Notes under the pieces: generated by a model
Told to the model about the DNA's origin: nothing
Databases searched by the model: none
What the model saw: only the letters and a program-made list of their open reading frames with translations
Part shown: positions 18-12,566 of the stretch, one piece after another
Layout of the letters: every line of letters begins with the position of its first letter
How positions within the stretch are numbered: the stretch's first letter is position 1
Program-made: the position numbers and the translations under genes
Virus genome (UHGV): UHGV-0851987
Reading direction: 5' to 3' (one strand)
DNA length: 31,064 bases
Source of the DNA: a virus

Positions 18-986
18 TTAGTAGGTTATTTTTGTTGCGAATACTTCGCCTTTTACGATGGCTGTTATGATATTTTTAGCAACATCTTCTGATGCACCAA
101 CCTTGATAAGGTCAGCAAGTATTTTGTTATTTACTTCTTTCCGGTGAGCTTTATCCTTTGCTCTACGCTCTTCTTCGTCCTTGATTCTTTTTTCTTCTGC
201 TATTCTGGCTTGCTCTTTTGCTTCAGCCTCGCGCCGGATTCGTTCAGCCTCCTCCTGTGCTTTTCGGCGTTCTGCTTCAATTGCCGCCTGCTTTTCTCTT
301 TCAGCTCGTTCTGCTGCCTTTTTTGCTTCGCGCTGTGCTCGTTGCTCGGCTTCAATGCGTTCACGCTCTGCACGTTCCGCTGCTGCCTTAGCTTCTGCTT
401 CTCGCCTTGCTGCTGCTTCAATTTCGGCTTTTGCCTTTGCTTCGGCTTCTGCTCTGGCTTTCTCTTCAGCTTCTCTTTTTAAGCGTTCTTCATGCTCTCG
501 CTTTTCCTGCTCCGCTTTGAGTCTTGCCTCTTCTCTTTTGCGGTCAAATTCGCGATCCATCAAAATAGCTATTTCATGGTCAGACTCAATTTGCTTTGCG
601 AGAGCTTCAGCTGCTGCCTTAGCTTCTTCTTCGGCTTTAATCCGCGCCTGTTCTTCCTCATAATCAGTAAGAGGCTGGCGTGCCTTGGCTTTCAGCTCAT
701 CAAGGCGATCACGCACTGTCTTGCGGTTAGCATCAATTAGCTTTGGAATTTCCTTCAGTTCAGCAACAAGGTCTTTGCCAAGACCATCGAGATATGTTTT
801 CGTCTGCGCAACTTTATACGCCAGAGAAGCGATCTCCTTTCTGCCCTTTGCCGTTGTGATATCAGGCACAAAGGACATAACTTCACGTTCAACCTTTTGG
901 AGAATTTCTTCAATCTGGTCTGCAGACTGAAATACAGTCATTGCATTTGCTTTTTCAATAACAACTAAGTCTGTTACTTCACTCAT
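18..986 (-). CDS. Conserved phage early-left protein with long Glu/Ala/Lys/Arg-rich coiled-coil core; function unknown
   Basis: Long ORF in the supplied track (18..1082); start trimmed to the ATG at 984-986, which has a GGAGG RBS (complement of 991-995) 4 nt upstream. The globular N-terminus is followed by about 170 aa of EAKAKAEIEAAARREAE-type repeats. Opposite-strand ORFs across the repeat are artefacts. Confidence 0.7.
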   Translation of the reverse strand: MSEVTDLVVIEKANAMTVFQSADQIEEILQKVEREVMSFVPDITTAKGRKEIASLAYKVAQTKTYLDGLGKDLVAELKEIPKLIDANRKTVRDRLDELKAKARQPLTDYEEEQARIKAEEEAKAAAEALAKQIESDHEIAILMDREFDRKREEARLKAEQEKREHEERLKREAEEKARAEAEAKAKAEIEAAARREAEAKAAAERAERERIEAEQRAQREAKKAAERAEREKQAAIEAERRKAQEEAERIRREAEAKEQARIAEEKRIKDEEERRAKDKAHRKEVNNKILADLIKVGASEDVAKNIITAIVKGEVFATKITY

Positions 987-998
987 ATATCCTCCATC

Positions 999-1026
999 AA
1001 AAAAAATTGCCCTCACATCGGAGGGC
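999..1026 (-). terminator. Intrinsic terminator directly upstream of the RBS of gene 18..986
   Basis: On the minus strand: GCCCTC-N6-GAGGGC hairpin (1009-1026) followed by AA and an 8-nt U run (complement of 999-1006). The geometry matches a tL-type terminator inside an N-antiterminated operon. Confidence 0.55.
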
Positions 1027-1162
1027 GAAGAAGATTTCCAATAATCAGAACAAGTCGGCTCCTGTTTAGTTACGAGCGACATTGCTCCGTGTATTCACTC
1101 GTGGGAATGAATACACAGTGCAGTGTTTATTCTGTTGTTAGTGCCAAAAATAAAGGCCACCA

Positions 1163-1414
1163 TCAGGCAGCCTTGTTGTAAATGTTGCAGGTATCAAGTA
1201 AGTAATTAGATGGAGCGCCATAAATTATGAATTCATCGTTTGTCGGGTCCATCTCCATCTCTTGGCCTATTGCCATTCTTGCGTCAGTGTCATCAGCGGC
1301 GAAGCATAAAACAGCCCACGCTCCCATTGTTTTAAAAAGAACTGCAATTGGCTGTGGTTTTACTGAATTTGCGTTAGCGCGGAAATCATAAATCGCACTT
1401 TCATGAAATTCCAT
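1163..1414 (-). CDS. Hypothetical small early protein (83 aa), translationally coupled to N; occupies the position taken by ral in lambda
   Basis: ORF in track. The ATG lies 4 nt after the N stop codon, with GAGGGG overlapping the end of N. No family recognised with confidence. Confidence 0.6.
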   Translation of the reverse strand: MEFHESAIYDFRANANSVKPQPIAVLFKTMGAWAVLCFAADDTDARMAIGQEMEMDPTNDEFIIYGAPSNYLLDTCNIYNKAA

Positions 1415-1417
1415 AGA

Positions 1418-1750
1418 TCACCCCTCATACAGTGGTTTGCTGCCTAATTTCATTTTCTGGCGACCAACACAAGTCACACCCATTTCACTGCGTGGCTTGC
1501 TGTACCATGTGCGCTGATTCTTGCGCTCAATACGCTGCAGGTTGCTTTCAATCTGTTCGTGGTATTCAGCCAGCACTGTAAGGTCTATCGGATTCAGTGC
1601 GCTTTCTACTCGTGATTTCGGTTTGCGATTCAGCGAGAGAATAGGGCGGTTAACTGGTTTTGCGCTTACCCCAACCAACAGGGGATTTGCTGCTTTCCAT
1701 TGAGCCTGTTTCTCTGCGCGACGTTCGCGGCGGCGTGTTTGTGCATCCAT
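1418..1750 (-). CDS. N: Transcription antitermination protein N (lambda type)
   Basis: Translation from the internal Met begins MDAQTRRRERRAEKQAQWKAANPLL, the arginine-rich boxB-binding motif of lambda N. AGGAGA RBS upstream of the ATG at 1748-1750. The track ORF (to 1801) is an N-terminal over-extension. Confidence 0.9.
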   Translation of the reverse strand: MDAQTRRRERRAEKQAQWKAANPLLVGVSAKPVNRPILSLNRKPKSRVESALNPIDLTVLAEYHEQIESNLQRIERKNQRTWYSKPRSEMGVTCVGRQKMKLGSKPLYEG

Positions 1751-1922
1751 CTGGATTCTCCTGTCAGTTAGCTTTGGTGGTGTGGTAGGTGGGAGACCCA
1801 TTTCGACCTGCTTCGGCCGACTTCAATTCGGCAATAGTTCCGCAGGCCTCGCCGCTTTACGTGCGACATATTCCCATCCATGAACCCTTCACCACACCCC
1901 AAAGCCTTCTGCTTTGAATGCT

Positions 1923-1953
1923 GCCCTTCTTCAGGGCTTAATTTTTAAGAGCA
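1923..1953 (-). promoter_or_regulatory. nutL site (boxA plus boxB)
   Basis: Minus strand reads TGCTCTTAA (boxA, complement of 1945-1953), a spacer, then GCCCTGAAGAAGGGC (boxB hairpin, complement of 1923-1937). This matches the lambda nutL arrangement as I recall it. Confidence 0.8.
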
Positions 1954-1992
1954 TCACCTTCATGGTGGTCAGTGCGTCCTGCTGATGGCTAA

Positions 1993-2021
1993 ATAGTACG
2001 ATTTGTACTTTATCGAGTCAA
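1993..2021 (-). promoter_or_regulatory. pL promoter with operator palindrome
   Basis: Minus strand: -35 TTGACT (complement of 2016-2021), 17-nt spacer, -10 TACTAT (complement of 1993-1998). The spacer contains the perfect palindrome AGTAC-N5-GTACT. Downstream transcribed sequence continues into nutL. Confidence 0.6.
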
Positions 2022-2084
2022 TACAAAATGCTCTAAATATAATTGGTTTTTTATAACGCTTTGTATTTAATGGGTTTATATTTT

Positions 2085-2125
2085 GGAAAAAGAAAACCCG
2101 ACACTAAGGTCGGGTTATTGTTGTG
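2085..2125. terminator. Bidirectional intrinsic terminator between cI 3' end and pL
   Basis: Hairpin CCCGAC-ACTAAG-GTCGGG (2097-2114), flanked by TTATTGTTGTG on the plus strand and UUUUCUUUUU on the minus strand. It would stop the cI transcript before pL; no rex-like genes are present. Confidence 0.6.
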
Positions 2126-2146
2126 TGCTTTAGAGTGGTGAGGCTG

Positions 2147-2806
2147 TTAACTAAATGTCTCTTCAGGCCACTGGCTGGCGATAACTTTCCCTACAACGGA
2201 ACAGCTATCATTGCATGGGATCATTGGATATTGCGGGTTTAGTGGTTGTAGGAACACCTGACCGCTATCCCTGATCAGTTTCTTGAAAGTAAACTCGTCA
2301 CCACCAAGTCTGGCTATGCAGAAATCACCTGGCTCAACAGCCTGCTCAGGGTCAACGAGAATTAACATCCCGTCAGGAAAGCTTGGCTTGGATCCTGTTG
2401 GTGCGGTCATGGAATTACCTTCAACTTCAAGCCAGAACGCACAATCACTGGCTTTTTTGGTTGTGCTGACCCATCTCTCCGCATCACCTTTGGTAAAGGT
2501 TCTAAGCTCAGGCGAGAACATCCCGGCCTGAACATGAGAAAAAACAGGGTACTCATATTGTTTTTTAACGGGGATAGATGAGTATTCGCCAACAGGTGAA
2601 AATGTACCGTCGTGGTTGAATGAGACGCTATCAATACCAAGGTATTTAAACACCACACCAATCTCGTCAAGAGATGGATGACGAGATCCGCGCAACCAGT
2701 GACCAATTCCACCCTGCGTCATACCAAGCTCTTCAGCCAACTTCTCTTGAGTTATGCCGAGCTCTTTCATTCTGGATCTAGCCAGTTCATACCATTTCAT
2801 TTTCAT
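2147..2806 (-). CDS. cI: CI-type prophage repressor: HTH DNA-binding domain plus LexA-like S24 autopeptidase domain (hybrid)
   Basis: The C-terminal roughly 130 aa ([18 protein letters not shown] ... [69 protein letters not shown] ... [11 protein letters not shown]) matches my recollection of lambda CI almost exactly. The N-terminal HTH domain ([38 protein letters not shown]) is unrelated to lambda CI. Start chosen at MKMKW (ATG 2804-2806); the alternative is the second Met at 2798-2800. Confidence 0.9.
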
Positions 2807-2917
2807 ACCCTTATTATTACGCTCTGTACTAAAACCATCCATGCACAAGATGTATTTTTTGTTTGCATTTCAAAAGTACATATCGTATTATTATCTCATG
2901 GTTACTATGGAGGGCAT
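2807..2917. promoter_or_regulatory. OR region: divergent pRM/pR promoters and operators
   Basis: pR: -35 TTGCAT (2863-2868), 17-nt spacer, -10 TATTAT (2886-2891), GGAGG RBS (2909-2913). The spacer contains AGTAC-N5-GTATT, a near copy of the pL palindrome. A roughly 35-bp module is shared between pR and pL. The pRM elements themselves are not confidently placed. Confidence 0.6.
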
Positions 2918-3133
2918 ATGAGCAACCTACGAAAATATCGAGAGTCACTGAATATCTCTCAAACAACACTTGCTAAGGCGGTTGGATGCACACAGGGAGC
3001 TATTGGGCATTGGGAATCTGGTCGTCGCTTCCCAGACCTTAAAACATGCCGCGCTCTTGTTGCATGCCTAAACAAGTTAGGCGCAAAAGTCAGTCTTGAT
3101 GACGTGTTCCCTCCGGAACACAAAGCCGCTTAA
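2918..3133 (+). CDS. cro: Cro-like HTH repressor (71 aa)
   Basis: ATG at 2918 preceded by GGAGGG. The protein MSNLRKYRESLNISQTTLAKAVGCTQGAIGHWESGRRFPD has an XRE-type HTH, and its recognition-helix motif TQG-IGHW--G-R-P is shared with the CI N-domain. The track ORF 2678..3133 is an upstream over-extension. Confidence 0.8.
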   Translation: MSNLRKYRESLNISQTTLAKAVGCTQGAIGHWESGRRFPDLKTCRALVACLNKLGAKVSLDDVFPPEHKAA

Positions 3134-3141
3134 GACATTCC

Positions 3142-3173
3142 AGCTCTTACACATTCCAGCCCTGAAAAAGGGC
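3142..3173 (+). promoter_or_regulatory. nutR site (boxA plus boxB)
   Basis: AGCTCTTACA (boxA-like, 3142-3151), spacer CATTCCAG, then GCCCTGAAAAAGGGC (boxB, 3159-3173). Matches lambda nutR as I recall it. Confidence 0.85.
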
Positions 3174-3239
3174 ATCCAATTAAACCACACCTATGGTGTA
3201 TGCATTTATTTGCATACATTCAATCAATTGTTATCTAAG

Positions 3240-3276
3240 GAAATACTTACATATGGTTCGTGCAAACAAACGCAAC
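3240..3276 (-). promoter_or_regulatory. PRE-like promoter with CII-binding TTGC-N6-TTGC repeats
   Basis: Minus strand reads TTGCGTTTGTTTGC (complement of 3262-3275), overlapping the first codons of cII as in lambda PRE. Confidence 0.55.
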
Positions 3277-3549
3277 GAGGCTCTACGAATCGAGAGTGCG
3301 TTGCTTAACAAAATCGCAATGCTTGGAACTGAGAAGACAGCGGAAGCTGTGGGCGTTGATAAGTCGCAGATCAGCAGGTGGAAGAGGGACTGGATTCCAA
3401 AGTTCTCAATGCTGCTTGCTGTTCTTGAATGGGGTGTTGTCGACGACGACATGGCTCGATTGGCACGACAAGTTGCTTCGATTCTCACCAATAAAAAACG
3501 CCCGGTGTGCAAGACCGAGCGTTCTGAACAAATCCAGATGGAGTTCTGA
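3253..3549 (+). CDS. cII: Transcriptional activator CII (lambda type)
   Basis: Translation from ATG 3253 is [84 protein letters not shown]...[10 protein letters not shown], close to my recollection of lambda CII. The track ORF 3193..3549 is over-extended. Confidence 0.95.
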
Positions 3550-3606
3550 GGTCATTACTGGATCTATCAACAGGAATAATTATGACAAAACAACTCAGTC
3601 CTTACC
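3528..3606 (-). ncRNA. OOP-like antisense RNA with its terminator at the 3' end of cII (approximate bounds)
   Basis: Minus-strand hairpin (arms at 3531-3536 and 3559-3564) followed by UUGUUC. The 3' terminal sequence of cII and the following bases are lambda-like, where the OOP terminator lies. The 5' end and pO promoter are not precisely located. Confidence 0.4.
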
Positions 3607-3728
3607 AGGACAAAATTCACAAACACATACTACGTGATCGCTTCCTGTCCAGCTTCAAGCAGCCTGGTCGATTCCGGGCTGAGTTGGAAAAGGTGAAGCT
3701 GATGCAGAAGGAGAAAGGTCATGAGTAA
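3582..3728 (+). CDS. Small ORF (48 aa) between cII and the replication initiator
   Basis: ATG at 3582 with AGGA upstream; translation [48 protein letters not shown]. Below the track size cutoff. It overlaps the start of the initiator by 8 nt. P22 carries an 'orf48' at the same position as I recall. Confidence 0.4.
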
Positions 3729-4620
3729 CATATCTAATCTAGCCGAAGCCAGAGAGGCCAGAAGGCTACAACAACCGCATCAAAGCAGCGGTAAGGGGTA
3801 TGCCTTGCTGCACCGTAAAATTATGGATGTGCCGTTTTACAAGGACGCAGAAGCTGCGCATCTGTGGATTCACTTAATCCTCAAAGCAAAGCATACGCCT
3901 GAGTATGTAATGACTGACGCAGGAGAAATTCTGGTAGGCAGAGGGAAGCTACTTGGCGGTAGAAACTCTCTGGCGTTTGAAACAGGACTCAAACCAGATC
4001 GCGTTCAGTACCTGCTTAGAAAGTTCAAAAAACTCGGCATGATTGACTGGGTTTCACACGGTAAATTTTCAGTTTTCTCGGTAGAGAAATATGACGATTA
4101 TCAGTCAAATTTTGTACCAGCAGATTACCAGCAAATTACCACCTCAAAGCCAGCAATACCAATGCCTGTAAGCAATACTGTACCAGCAGATTACCAGCAA
4201 ATTACCACAGATAAAGAATATAATAATATTATCTCTAATACTGACGTATTAGAGAGTGCCACAGCAGACAAAAAGTCTGACAAGAAAAAACCTTCCGTCA
4301 GCTGTCAGGATGTTGTCGATGCTTACCACGAAATCCTTCCTGAAGCGCCAAGAATCCGCGCACTGAATGACAAGCGTAAAAACCAGATCCGAACGTTCTG
4401 GCGCAAAGCCGGAGTGATAACCCGCCAGCTTGACGGGCATGGGTTCACGATGCAGGACTGGAGAAATTATTTGAGCTACGTAGGCGAAAATTGCCGATGG
4501 ATGTTCGAAGAACGCCCAAACCATCAACGCGGAACCGTCTGGCACAAAAAGGGATTTGATTTCCTGCTTAACGACAATACCTACCTGAAAGTTCGTGAGG
4601 GTGAACACGATGACCGATAA
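3721..4620 (+). CDS. Replication initiation protein (O-like replisome organizer)
   Basis: ORF in track with RBS GGAGAAAGG before the ATG at 3721. It sits immediately upstream of, and overlaps, the helicase gene. The origin-like iterons lie inside the coding sequence. Confidence 0.85.
4114..4245 (+). repeat. Putative replication origin: two 29-bp direct repeats (iterons) plus AT-rich tract
   Basis: GTACCAGCAGATTACCAGCAAATTACCAC occurs at 4114-4142 and again at 4180-4208, each with an internal ATTACC sub-repeat. Followed by AGATAAAGAATATAATAATATTATCTCTAATA. The arrangement parallels ori-lambda inside gene O. Confidence 0.6.
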
Positions 4621-9824: not shown

Positions 9825-9896
9825 GGGTCAGTCGTATAAAGGTCATTACGGAAGGCTGTTAACCTTCTTATCGTGGTTCGAGTCCACGCTGTCCCG
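9825..9896 (+). tRNA. tRNA-Asn (anticodon GUU)-like, with one acceptor-stem mismatch
   Basis: Hand fold: acceptor GGGTCAG/CTGTCCC (U-U mismatch at 4:69), D-loop with GG, anticodon stem GAAGG/CCTTC with loop CUGUUAA, T-arm CGTGG-TTCGAGT-CCACG, discriminator G, encoded CCA at 9897-9899. Confidence 0.5.
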
Positions 9897-9904
9897 CCAA
9901 ATAT

Positions 9905-9977
9905 GCTGGTTTAGCTCCAATGGTAGAGCAGTCGCCTTGTAAGCGAATGGGTAGCGGTTCAAGTCCGTTAACCAGCA
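9905..9977 (+). tRNA. tRNA-Thr (anticodon UGU)
   Basis: Hand fold: acceptor GCTGGTT/AACCAGC, U8 A9, D-arm GCTC-CAATGGTA-GAGC, anticodon loop CUUGUAA, T-arm AGCGG-TTCAAGT-CCGTT, discriminator A, encoded CCA at 9978-9980. Confidence 0.65.
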
Positions 9978-10222
9978 CCATAACTGAGCCGTAGCCACTT
10001 GCTATCCTGGATTCATCAGTGATAGTTACGCTGCGGCCTTCTACGCATGACCTTCGTGAAAGCGGGTGGCATGAGGTTGCCCTAACAACCTCCTGCCGTT
10101 TTGCCCGTGCATATCGGTCACGAACAAATCTGATTACTAAACACAGTAGCCTGGATTTGTTCTATCAGTAACCGACCATATTCCTAATTAAATAGAGCAA
10201 ATCCCCTTATTGGGGGTAAGAC

Positions 10223-12323: not shown

Positions 12324-12566
12324 ATGGCAGAGATTATTCCCATGACTGAAGAACAGAAATTCCAGTTAGAGATTTACAAACTGGTCATGAACCAGAACGC
12401 AGCCGCAGAAGAAGCATTTCAGTTCATCGGCACTGACGAGCTGAAGCTTGAGCTATTCAAAATTCACTTCCAGTCAGGCGGCGCTAATTCAGATATCACG
12501 ACTCGTACTATCGAAGCGGTGCGTAAATCGAAGGAAGCGTTAGACCTGTTCACTACCGGAGCATAA
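12324..12566 (+). CDS. Hypothetical phage protein (80 aa)
   Basis: ORF in track with ACGGAG RBS. Same position as small ORFs upstream of the small terminase gene in P22-like phages. Confidence 0.55.
   Translation: MAEIIPMTEEQKFQLEIYKLVMNQNAAAEEAFQFIGTDELKLELFKIHFQSGGANSDITTRTIEAVRKSKEALDLFTTGA

Follow-up and report, generated by a model that had tools for sequence, protein, structure and literature searches.

Organization of the immunity region

The window (the whole stretch of viral DNA that was analysed, UHGV-0851987, 31,064 nucleotides) contains a lysis/lysogeny region in which N and cI are transcribed from one strand and cro and cII from the other, with operators, promoters, nut sites and a terminator between and around them (Table 1). 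The open reading frames of N, cI, cro, cII, O and a helicase are all intact, and the rest of the window is a near-complete Sf6-like genome, morphogenesis genes included. An Rfam scan of the entire stretch found two tRNAs and nothing else.

Table 1. Coordinates of the features of the immunity region in the window
Feature	Position	Strand	Description and basis
N	1418-1750	-	110 aa; 91% amino acid identity to lambda N; Pfam N36, E = 1.6e-26
N leader variable core	1790-1885 (approximate)	-	differs from lambda and Sf6; three-way alignment
nutL	1923-1953	-	boxA TGCTCTTAA (1945-1953), boxB GCCCTGAAGAAGGGC (1923-1937); alignment with lambda nutL
pL	1993-2021	-	-35 TTGACT (2021-2016), 17-nt spacer, -10 TACTAT (1998-1993); predicted start ~1986; promoter scan
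oL1	1994-2010		TAGTACGATTTGTACTT; equivalent of operator annotated in VT2-Sakai; conserved in 6 phages
oL2	2019-2035		CAATACAAAATGCTCTA; weakest site; overlaps pL -35; VT2-Sakai equivalent, PWM, conserved in 6 phages
oL3	2052-2068		TATAACGCTTTGTATTT; VT2-Sakai equivalent, PWM, conserved in 6 phages
cI-transcript terminator (t_imm homologue)	2087-2116	-	stem AACCCGAC/GTCGGGTT, then U-tract; terminator scan
cI, 3' part	2147-2557	-	lambda-type cleavage-site region, Peptidase_S24 C-domain and stop codon
cI, 5' part	2558-2806	-	non-lambda HTH_3 DNA-binding domain, VT2-Sakai type (93.4% nucleotide, 94% amino acid identity to VT2-Sakai)
pRM (inferred)	2813-2841	-	-10 AATAAT (2818-2813), weak -35 TGGATG (2841-2836); position of pRM annotated in VT2-Sakai
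oR3	2815-2831		TATTACGCTCTGTACTA; VT2-Sakai equivalent; conserved among compared phages
oR2	2841-2857		ATGCACAAGATGTATTT; centre ~-43 from predicted pRM start; VT2-Sakai equivalent, conserved
pR	2862-2891	+	-35 TTTGCA, 18-nt spacer, -10 TATTAT; promoter scan
oR1	2874-2890		AAGTACATATCGTATTA; VT2-Sakai equivalent, conserved; inverted repeat with oL1
cro	2918-3133	+	71 aa; all-helical HTH_3 type (Pfam), unlike lambda Cro
nutR	3142-3173	+	boxA AGCTCTTAC (3142-3150), boxB GCCCTGAAAAAGGGC (3159-3173); alignment with lambda nutR
cII	3253-3549	+	lambda type; block 3140-3589 97% identical to lambda (nucleotide); Pfam Phage_CII, E = 1e-48

Residues 1-60 of N, the arginine-rich N-terminus included, are identical to lambda N, and boxB is identical to lambda in both nut sites, a pairing of matching arginine-rich motif and cognate boxB hairpins that points to lambda-type antitermination. 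Each boxA differs from lambda at the first base, which against the consensus CGCTCTTA is T in nutL and A in nutR; the nutL boxA of Sf6 also differs there (G), so this position appears variable. The first-pass annotation had placed a lambda-type N, nutL and nutR within 1802-3180; the type is correct for all of them, but the N gene lies outside that interval, and its last ~19 codons belong to a block (1001-1476) that matches VT2-Sakai downstream of VT2-Sakai's own N gene. For the variable core of the N leader, in which an RNase III-type hairpin was sought, a closing helix was predicted, with a z-score of only -1.4.

The terminator that follows cI is 86% identical to lambda 35799-35834 and aligns with the pRM-transcript terminator annotated in VT2-Sakai. 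It had initially been read as bidirectional, and the hairpin (2095-2116) does fit a terminator pattern on both strands, but this is a pattern match only, with the clean U-tract on the cI-sense strand. The initial reading that rex-like genes are absent between cI and pL was borne out: the 78 bp between the cI stop codon (2147) and oL3 (2068) contain one terminator hairpin and no open reading frame of 40 aa or more, and UHGV-0851987 thus has no rexAB-type exclusion cassette, that is, no accessory genes co-transcribed with cI.

Repressor, Cro and operators

CI (2147-2806, minus strand) is 71% identical to lambda CI overall and near-identical to it from YEYPVFSHV to the C-terminus; pairwise alignment puts the junction, at SIPVKKQ/YEYPVF, exactly between Q83 and Y84 in the 219-aa reading, in agreement with the first-pass annotation. 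Positions 2153-2557 of cI are 94.6% identical to lambda 37233-37637 at the nucleotide level, with three amino acid changes in 136, and the C-domain matches lambda CI fragments in the PDB (E = 1e-83 to 1e-97). Ala94-Gly95, Ser132 and Lys175 (219-aa numbering) are kept in an alignment of five repressors including lambda CI, and CI, 98% identical to lambda across the cleavage-site region and C-domain, is predicted to undergo RecA-stimulated autocleavage. Pfam recognizes HTH_3 (residues 11-59, E = 5e-11) as well as Peptidase_S24 (E = 9e-29). The HTH domain was rightly called unrelated to lambda, since ~45% nucleotide identity in a forced alignment amounts to no DNA-level similarity and the protein similarity is weak, at the level of the HTH. 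Candidate start codons for cI are at 2806, alternatively at 2800, and a TTG at 2848 that some gene callers choose. Among public contigs, just one other was found to encode exactly this 217-aa CI allele.

Cro gave no alignment to lambda Cro at E <= 100. It shares with the CI N-domain the motif T-Q-G-x-I-G-H-W-x-x-G-x-R-x-P, as originally noticed, with 35% identity over 62 aa (E = 5e-11). At least 1,000 contigs carry precisely this Cro sequence.

The GenBank records of VT2-Sakai and the Stx1-converting phage annotate three oL and three oR operators of 17 bp, pL, pR, pRM and the pRM-transcript terminator at equivalent positions; the operators in these records carry the label 'putative'. One site per promoter had been noted at the outset; each promoter does have a site, but the actual number is three each. 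The module said to be common to pL and pR is a 20-nt inverted repeat (1992-2011 and 2873-2892, covering oL1 and oR1; 90% complementary), and a local alignment of 37 nt, running from the -35 side to the -10, reaches a score of 38, versus a maximum of 30 in 500 shuffles. The palindromes reported there lie at 1995-2009 (AGTAC-N5-GTACT) and 2875-2889 (AGTAC-N5-GTATT). In a comparison of six phages the operator blocks are conserved and the spacers between them vary; the half-site consensus is TAGTACAA, with invariant AC...GT at positions 5-6 and 12-13. Of all sites in UHGV-0851987, oL1 has the highest score under a PWM that was itself built from the six sites. A search for further operator copies with this PWM gave one extra match (12494-12510, score 15.0), which was rejected because it lies inside a coding region and ~1.0 chance match is expected. 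The bare core TACN5GTA is not over-represented across UHGV-0851987 (5 seen versus 3.1 expected), and the evidence for the operators is therefore their placement and conservation.

Operator centres are spaced by 26 and 33 bp in oR and by 25 and 33 bp in oL, compared with 23/24 and 24/20 bp in lambda, and pairwise cooperativity and looping in the manner of lambda should not be taken for granted despite the 98% identical C-domain. The -35 of pR sits between oR2 and oR1, and oR2 does not overlap it. The inferred start of pRM approximately coincides with the cI ATG at 2806, so that the cI mRNA is probably leaderless. In electrophoretic mobility shift assays, lambda CI bound its own O1 sites at 0.2-0.35 uM and VT2-Sakai operators only at 3.7-6.4 uM, which is 10-25 times weaker binding (PMC10742460).

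The region is predicted to work as an ordinary bistable switch of CI and Cro, in which RecA triggers CI to cleave itself and a lambda-type N brings about antitermination, its DNA binding, cooperativity, pRM activation, self-cleavage and homo- or heteroimmunity all being deduced by homology. CI, in which an HTH_3 DNA-binding domain precedes a lambda-type cleavage-site region and a Peptidase_S24 domain for oligomerisation, would bind as dimers to six 17-bp operators, three each at oR and oL. Occupied O1 sites would mask the spacer and -10 of pR and pL, causing repression, and oL2 would additionally cover the pL -35. At oR2, centred ~43 bp upstream of the cI start, CI may activate the weak, probably leaderless pRM, and the overlap of oR3 with the pRM -10 would permit negative autoregulation. 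The cI transcript presumably stops at the t_imm-like terminator directly 3' of cI, the slot of lambda rexAB or of relatives' cargo being empty. Upon DNA damage, RecA filaments would elicit CI self-cleavage at Ala94-Gly95 by Ser132 and Lys175, as in lambda; Cro, which seems to be an all-helical HTH protein paralogous to the CI N-domain and shares its recognition-helix motif (TQGxIGHW), would then occupy the same operators, and lambda-type N acting at lambda-type nutL and nutR would allow readthrough of early terminators.

Mosaic structure and immunity type

Nucleotide alignment identifies lambda-like blocks at 1449-1987 (N and nutL), 2089-2124 (t_imm), 2153-2557 (the cleavage and oligomerisation half of cI) and 3140-3589 (nutR to cII), and VT2-Sakai-like blocks at 1001-1476, 1974-2084, 2147-3133 and 3485-4470. 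Lambda homology stops at 1987, equivalent to lambda 35583 (the lambda pL start site is at about 35582), is absent at oL/pL (1988-2088) and over the cI N-domain, oR and cro (2558-3139), and picks up again at 3140, just after cro. UHGV-0851987 therefore has no lambda operators, its CI N-domain and Cro are not of the lambda type by nucleotide and protein alignment, and it is not a member of imm-lambda. The region had been called a natural heteroimmune recombinant, and it is indeed mosaic with respect to lambda, with sharp boundaries (pL start site, CI linker and just after cro) and a non-lambda repressor, Cro and operators, but a fresh mosaic is not supported, and its specificity is predicted to be that of the known VT2-Sakai type.

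The cI-oR-cro segments of UHGV-0851987 and VT2-Sakai are 92.3% identical at the nucleotide level; CI is 96% identical over its full length and its DNA-binding domain 94%, the HTH segment being unchanged, the Cro proteins are 100% identical, and all six annotated operators of VT2-Sakai have equivalents in the same promoter context. Judging from these sequences, the non-lambda module appears to be the VT2-Sakai / Stx2-II / Nil2 / 2851 immunity type, a common and already sequenced mosaic and nothing new. This immunity type was sequenced in approximately 1999-2003, first in VT2-Sakai, and its operators are annotated in GenBank. The region as a whole is very probably the lysis/lysogeny switch of an Sf6-like, P22-family temperate E. 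coli phage or prophage of the VT2-Sakai (Sp5) immunity type. Homoimmunity with VT2-Sakai-type phages is predicted, and heteroimmunity to lambda is expected because the repressor, Cro and operators are all non-lambda. A literature search found no binding, footprinting or immunity data for the CI/Cro pair of UHGV-0851987, nor any published binding or footprinting results for CI of VT2-Sakai with the operators of that phage, the primary descriptions being accessible through citing papers and GenBank annotations.

The lineage of UHGV-0851987 (683R2, Louie, phi458 and ~212 genomes at >=95% identity) might constitute an immunity subtype distinct from the Stx-phage lineage (~93%), with affinities or specificity shifted by the N-domain and central operator bases changing together, and identities do fall into two bands, 95-99% and 90-95%; we consider this improbable. 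Systematic lineage differences occur at central or near-central bases of oL1, oL2, oR2 and oR1, and in phage 434 the non-contacted central operator bases tune affinity, but the invariant contact positions A5, C6 / G12, T13 are unchanged, and a Cro that is 100% identical must recognise both operator sets. Five N-domain residues differ relative to VT2-Sakai (D47S, E48D, S60N, V61I and I78A), yet the CI recognition-helix segment is identical, and the N-domains are 94% identical, which exceeds the 92% that serves as a rule of thumb for predicting the same specificity (PMC2629481). Given the differences in these five residues and in the central operator bases, specificity identical to that of the Stx-phage lineage is a prediction only.

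It is very improbable that a new intragenic crossover, by which UHGV-0851987 gained either a lambda cI C-domain or a foreign N-domain with cro and operators, recently created a novel hybrid repressor of uncharacterised specificity, as the sharp lambda-homology boundaries at the CI linker, the pL start and just after cro might suggest. VT2-Sakai CI has the same lambda-like C-domain with the junction at the same codon, as do dozens of Stx phages and 786 E. coli genomes, and the domain junction was therefore inherited and did not arise in UHGV-0851987. The C-domain alleles of UHGV-0851987, VT2-Sakai and lambda are roughly equidistant (92-94% nucleotide identity pairwise), too far apart for any of them to have been copied recently from another. 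A colinear, diverged homologue in Salmonella phages indicates that the combination of N- and C-domain is old, and that calling it "lambda domain plus foreign domain" is to view it from lambda. HK97 CI does not add a third type of N-domain joined to the lambda C-domain, as alignment shows it to be simply lambda-type.

It is just as improbable that the region is decayed and non-functional, left over in a cryptic prophage from which rexAB and other genes were deleted: the cI-pL slot is empty where relatives have 0.9-1.3 kb of cargo, but four sequenced phages have the same empty slot, the reading frames from N to the helicase are intact, promoters, operators and terminator are conserved, and the genome is otherwise near-complete.

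The VT2-Sakai immunity type of this region has little importance by itself, being textbook lambdoid mosaicism: operators, Cro and the DNA-binding domain of the repressor form an immunity cassette that is exchanged as a unit between conserved linkers, with one boundary in the domain linker of cI. Its value for annotation is that a large group of Shiga-toxin phages is predicted to be homoimmune with this phage, and lambda, 434 (Sf6) and P22 heteroimmune. It also raises the questions of interference in polylysogens between heteroimmune repressors that have a near-identical oligomerisation domain, and of the lambda C-domain operating at other operator spacings. Since this CI has 98% identity to lambda CI in the C-domain but a DNA-binding domain without any DNA-level relationship to lambda's, mixed oligomers are conceivable. 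In a cell with both lambda-immunity and VT2-Sakai-type prophages, the repressors could form mixed dimers or higher oligomers, leaving fewer functional homodimers and resulting in destabilised lysogens (more spontaneous induction) or coupled induction; this is speculative and rather unlikely. If true, there would be cross-talk between formally heteroimmune prophages, which could bear on Stx-phage induction in polylysogenic E. coli. In a lesser variant of this idea, the 33-bp spacings between O1 and O2 in oR and between O2 and O3 in oL may put the lambda C-domain into a cooperative geometry unlike that of lambda.

Comparison with known phages

Among the immunity regions closest to that of UHGV-0851987 are those of VT2-Sakai (AP000422) and of the phages homoimmune with it (Stx2-converting phage II, the Stx1-converting phage of Morioka V526, Nil2, 2851 and the PA-series). 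VT2-Sakai has the same CI junction, equivalents of the six operators, pL, pR and pRM, and a terminator after the cI operon. Its flanks, in contrast, consist of a 933W/H-19B-type N with nut sites and an HK022-type cII, whereas N, nutL, nutR and cII of UHGV-0851987 are of the lambda type; VT2-Sakai also carries the cargo genes H0092/H0093 between cI and pL, where UHGV-0851987 has none. The two oL regions are only 78% identical, differing in the spacers and in central operator bases.

Over the whole 2.2-kb region from N to cII, vB_EcoP-683R2, Louie, Dewey and vB_EcoP-720R6 are colinear with UHGV-0851987 and 97-98% identical, differing by a few percent of point differences, and their cI-pL slot is empty too. 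Phage 683R2 is assigned to Lederbergvirus, to which Sf6 also belongs. The same module is present at 98.8% identity in phi458, which, unlike UHGV-0851987, has ~1 kb of cargo between pL and cI; its paper describes phi458 as a spontaneously induced prophage. The complete arrangement (lambda-type N and cII with an empty slot) is found at 97-98% identity in 70 complete E. coli genomes, and the module of cI N-domain, oR and cro in 786 of 5,426 genomes.

Lambda shares with UHGV-0851987 its N (91% amino acid identity), the nut boxBs, the t_imm hairpin, the CI C-domain (98% amino acid identity) and the cII block (97% nucleotide identity), along with the architecture of three plus three operators, divergent pRM and pR, and a probably leaderless cI. 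It differs in the CI N-domain, in Cro (whose sequence family points to a different fold class) and in operators without DNA-level similarity, and rexA/rexB are present in lambda only. Shigella phage Sf6, the nearest genome overall (78% coverage, 95% identity), has a lambda-type N and nutL like UHGV-0851987 but phage 434-type operators and repressor, and the immunity module has therefore been swapped.

More distantly, the repressor of Salmonella phage Oslo (vB_SosS_Oslo) combines an HTH domain and a lambda-like S24 domain colinearly, with the same linker length as CI of UHGV-0851987, and the repressors of Oslo, g341c and SPN9CC are ~54% identical to this CI in the N-domain and ~80% in the C-domain. 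For the L/ST64T repressor, a match to the N-domain was observed (53.7% over 67 aa). At such identities, these Salmonella-phage repressors are predicted to have an immunity specificity different from that of UHGV-0851987. The epsilon34 repressor is likewise ~80% identical to lambda in the C-domain and ~50% identical to L, VT2-Sa and Nil2 in the N-domain, and its proposed operator consensus, WTACRAWWTGTAT, has the core TAC...GTA in common with the operators of UHGV-0851987 (PMC2629481).

Mosaic structure of the immunity region

The genes at positions 1400-3600 are arranged as in a lambdoid early control region (table); beyond cII come a 48-aa ORF and genes for an O-like initiator and a DnaB-like helicase. 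Comparison with lambda by blastn yielded four homologous blocks, and zero lambda similarity was found at oL/pL (1988-2088) or across the 5' part of cI, oR and cro (2558-3139); the mosaic relative to lambda is real. Replacement of the N-leader core depresses the identity of the N-nutL block, which ends at about the lambda pL start (near 35582). Beyond the lambda-like blocks, both sides resemble the Shiga toxin phage VT2-Sakai (1001-1476, 96%; 3485-4470, 97%). Short stretches in which lambda-like and VT2-Sakai-like sequence overlap, at the N and cII 3' ends, are similar in all three phages and look like typical linkers for module exchange.

Features of the immunity region and blocks homologous to lambda
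Feature	Coordinates	Strand	Lambda coordinates	Description
Lambda block	1449-1987		35062-35583	From N across nutL to approximately the pL start; 85%
Lambda block	2089-2124		35799-35834	t_imm hairpin just past the rexB 3' end; 86%
Lambda block	2153-2557		37233-37637	cI 3' part; 94.6%
Lambda block	3140-3589		38247-38693	From 6 bp past the cro stop through nutR, tR1 and cII; 97%
N	1418-1750	minus		Pfam N36
nutL	1923-1953
pL and three operators	1993-2068
oL1	1994-2010			TAGTACGATTTGTACTT
oL2	2019-2035			CAATACAAAATGCTCTA
oL3	2052-2068			TATAACGCTTTGTATTT
pL				-35 TTGACT, -10 TACTAT; oL1 over spacer and -10, oL2 over -35
Hairpin terminator	2095-2116
cI	2147-2806	minus		Pfam HTH_3 and Peptidase_S24
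Three operators, divergent pRM and pR	2813-2891
oR3	2815-2831			TATTACGCTCTGTACTA
oR2	2841-2857			ATGCACAAGATGTATTT
oR1	2874-2890			AAGTACATATCGTATTA
pRM (inferred)	2841-2813			-10 AATAAT (2818-2813), weak -35 TGGATG (2841-2836); position equivalent to VT2-Sakai pRM
pR				-35 TTTGCA, -10 TATTAT; overlapped by oR1
cro	2918-3133			Pfam HTH_3
nutR	3142-3173
cII	3253-3549			Pfam Phage_CII

The antitermination system is of the lambda type, as the first-pass annotation proposed: N is 91% identical to lambda N, boxB is identical to lambda in both nut sites, and boxA differs from lambda CGCTCTTA only at its first base, which is T in nutL (1945-1953, minus strand), A in nutR (3142-3150, plus strand) and G in nutL of Sf6. 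Between nutL and the ribosome-binding site of N, the leader has conserved flanks around a centre (~1790-1885, minus strand) that has been exchanged compared with lambda and also with Sf6. Folding still predicts a long-range closing helix (GGGGUGUGGU / ACCACACC), but the predicted structure has no significant stability (z = -1.4). The final ~19 codons of N (1418-1476) diverge from lambda and lie inside the VT2-Sakai-matching stretch, the counterpart of which is located downstream of VT2-Sakai's own, unrelated N gene; this 3' end looks like a remnant lambda-type N end acting as a mosaic linker. The same stretch contains an 83-aa ORF (1163-1414, minus strand) with no Pfam family, the counterpart of VT2-Sakai H0090. 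A 354-aa ORF (18-1082, minus strand) has a long low-complexity stretch rich in Ala, Glu, Lys and Arg; its counterpart in the E. coli phage 683R2 is annotated 'TolA protein', and its position is that of gene 33 in Sf6. Two 30-bp repeats within the O-like gene (4113-4142 and 4179-4208), identical to 'ori iteron' features of VT2-Sakai, are likely the replication origin.

The 78 bp from the cI stop to oL3 contain no ORF, confirming the absence of rex-like genes between cI and pL, and one hairpin, which aligns with the VT2-Sakai terminator and with lambda t_imm. Its description as a bidirectional terminator is correct insofar as the terminator pattern fits both strands, but its clean U-tract is on the cI-sense strand and no transcript is evident that would need the other orientation. 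The empty slot is common to the E. coli phages 683R2, Louie, 720R6 and Dewey; the slot holds H0092/H0093 in VT2-Sakai, an 858-nt ORF in EC.P3 and 2B8, two ORFs in ev207 and ~1 kb in phi458.

Domain junction of the CI repressor

From Y84 on (219-aa numbering), CI is identical to lambda CI except for three residues, and alignment of the two proteins places the junction between SIPVKKQ and YEYPVF, exactly as first read. The DNA-binding proteins are indeed foreign to lambda: the N-domain of CI reaches only ~45% nucleotide identity when alignment is forced, equivalent to no DNA-level similarity, and no similarity of Cro to lambda Cro is detectable. Cro and the CI N-domain are 35% identical to each other (E=5e-11) and have in common the motif TQGxIGHWxxGxRxP, as first read. 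A 13-nt inverted repeat (85% complementary) between the cI domain junction (2546-2558) and the cro start codon region (2916-2928) is probably due to chance.

In a three-way codon alignment, the window and VT2-Sakai lose homology to lambda at one and the same codon. The C-domains are roughly equidistant in nucleotide identity (window/lambda 93.9%, window/VT2-Sakai 92.0%, VT2-Sakai/lambda 92.7%), and the N-domains of the window and VT2-Sakai are 93.4% identical. Repressors of Salmonella phages vB_SosS_Oslo, g341c, SPN9CC and others are ~54% identical to the window CI in the N-domain and ~80% in the C-domain, and that of Oslo is colinear over the full alignment, with a linker of equal length. In the epsilon34 genome paper, the C-domain of that phage's repressor is given as ~80% identical to lambda and the N-terminal part as ~50% identical to those of L, VT2-Sa and Nil2; the operator proposed there is WTACRAWWTGTAT (PMC2629481). 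HK97 CI, considered as a third hybrid, was rejected, being plain lambda-type on alignment. The junction within CI is an old trait that this repressor family has inherited in common, and not a product of this phage. Of the reading as a natural recombinant, the mosaic relative to lambda stands, but the CI junction was inherited.

Both the Ala-Gly cleavage site and the catalytic Ser/Lys dyad are retained in the C-domain, whose matches to lambda CI structures in the PDB have E=1e-83 to 1e-97. On these grounds, induction would be expected to depend on RecA, and dimer and tetramer contacts to resemble those of lambda.

Operators, promoters and the predicted switch

The six putative operators are the equivalents of sites annotated in the VT2-Sakai record. 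Their 12 half-sites give the consensus TAGTACAA, with C invariant at position 6 and A at position 5 in 11 of 12. A module common to pL and pR, noted earlier, is evident as a 20-nt inverted repeat (90% complementary) and a 37-nt local alignment (score 38, versus a maximum of 30 over 500 shuffles). The evidence for these putative operators is placement and conservation: in an alignment of oL and oR from six phages (the window, 683R2, VT2-Sakai, EC.P3, 2B8 and ev207), operator blocks are conserved and spacers variable, most clearly at oL (78% overall to VT2-Sakai). Differences between the window lineage and the Stx-phage lineage fall mainly in the middle of the operators, at bases that may make no contact. 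Within the window, the bare core TACN5GTA shows no enrichment (5 found versus 3.1 expected). The one additional site that a PWM built from the six operators picked out, at 12494-12510 (TATCACGACTCGTACTA, score 15.0), just upstream of the small terminase gene, was rejected as a further operator because it lies inside a coding region and about one such match is expected by chance.

Operator geometry is one real difference from lambda. Centres are spaced 26 bp (oR3-oR2), 33 bp (oR2-oR1), 25 bp (oL1-oL2) and 33 bp (oL2-oL3), versus 23/24 bp at oR and 24/20 bp at oL of lambda, despite a CI oligomerisation domain that is 98% identical, and oR2 does not cover the pR -35. The oR1-oR2 spacing of VT2-Sakai is 32 bp, the 1-bp difference being due to the length of a T-run.

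By homology, transcription from pRM would begin close to the cI ATG at 2806, so that the mRNA would lack a leader, as it does in lambda; oR2, centred ~43 bp upstream of this start, could activate pRM, and oR3 would lie over the pRM -10. Two other candidate cI starts are ATG 2800, with which VT2-Sakai CI is annotated (217 aa), and TTG 2848, matching 231-aa versions of CI in public records; the latter lies inside oR2, upstream of the inferred pRM -10, and so would be usable only on pRE transcripts. No direct binding results for the cognate CI or Cro were found in the literature. In EMSA, lambda CI bound VT2-Sakai operators at 3.7-6.4 uM versus 0.21-0.35 uM for its own O1 sites (PMC10742460), which is consistent with heteroimmunity. 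Hetero-oligomer cross-talk with lambda-immunity prophages is possible, and nothing about it is specific to this window.

Immunity type and relatives

When 50,697 phage records were searched with the non-lambda module (2540-3145), five phages (phi458, Dewey, Louie, 683R2 and 720R6) matched at 97-99% identity and more than 55 records at ~93%, including VT2-Sakai, Nil2, 2851, the Stx1-converting phage and Stx2 phage II of strain Morioka V526, PA-series Stx2a phages, ev017, ev207 and 2B8. Among 5,426 complete E. coli genomes, the full 1400-3600 arrangement is present in 70 (97-98% identity) and the module of cI N-domain, oR and cro in 786 (212 records at 95% identity or above, 579 at 90-95%). Some genomes have the module in up to two places, which would amount to two prophages of equal predicted immunity in one cell. 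Cro occurs with exactly this sequence in at least 1,000 contigs. The 217-aa CI allele was seen unchanged in only one other contig; its cluster at 90% identity has 1,686 members.

Overall, the window belongs to the P22 family and is Sf6-like: 78% of it is covered by Sf6 (95% identity) and 70% by 683R2 (97%). A tandem tRNA-Asn (GTT) and tRNA-Thr (TGT) pair (9825-9980) is located as in Sf6, downstream of Q. Sf6 bears phage 434-type operators, and so the immunity cassette has been swapped. VT2-Sakai CI is 96% identical to the window CI over its full length, lambda-like C-domain included, and its Cro is 100% identical. The VT2-Sakai record labels CI 'similar to bacteriophage lambda CI' and annotates three oL and three oR operators, pL, pR, pRM and a rho-independent terminator of the pRM transcript; the Stx1-phage record is annotated alike. 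Thus, the immunity type is common and already known, sequenced and annotated, and a near-identical arrangement is present at 97-98% identity in the published genomes of 683R2, Louie, 720R6 and Dewey.
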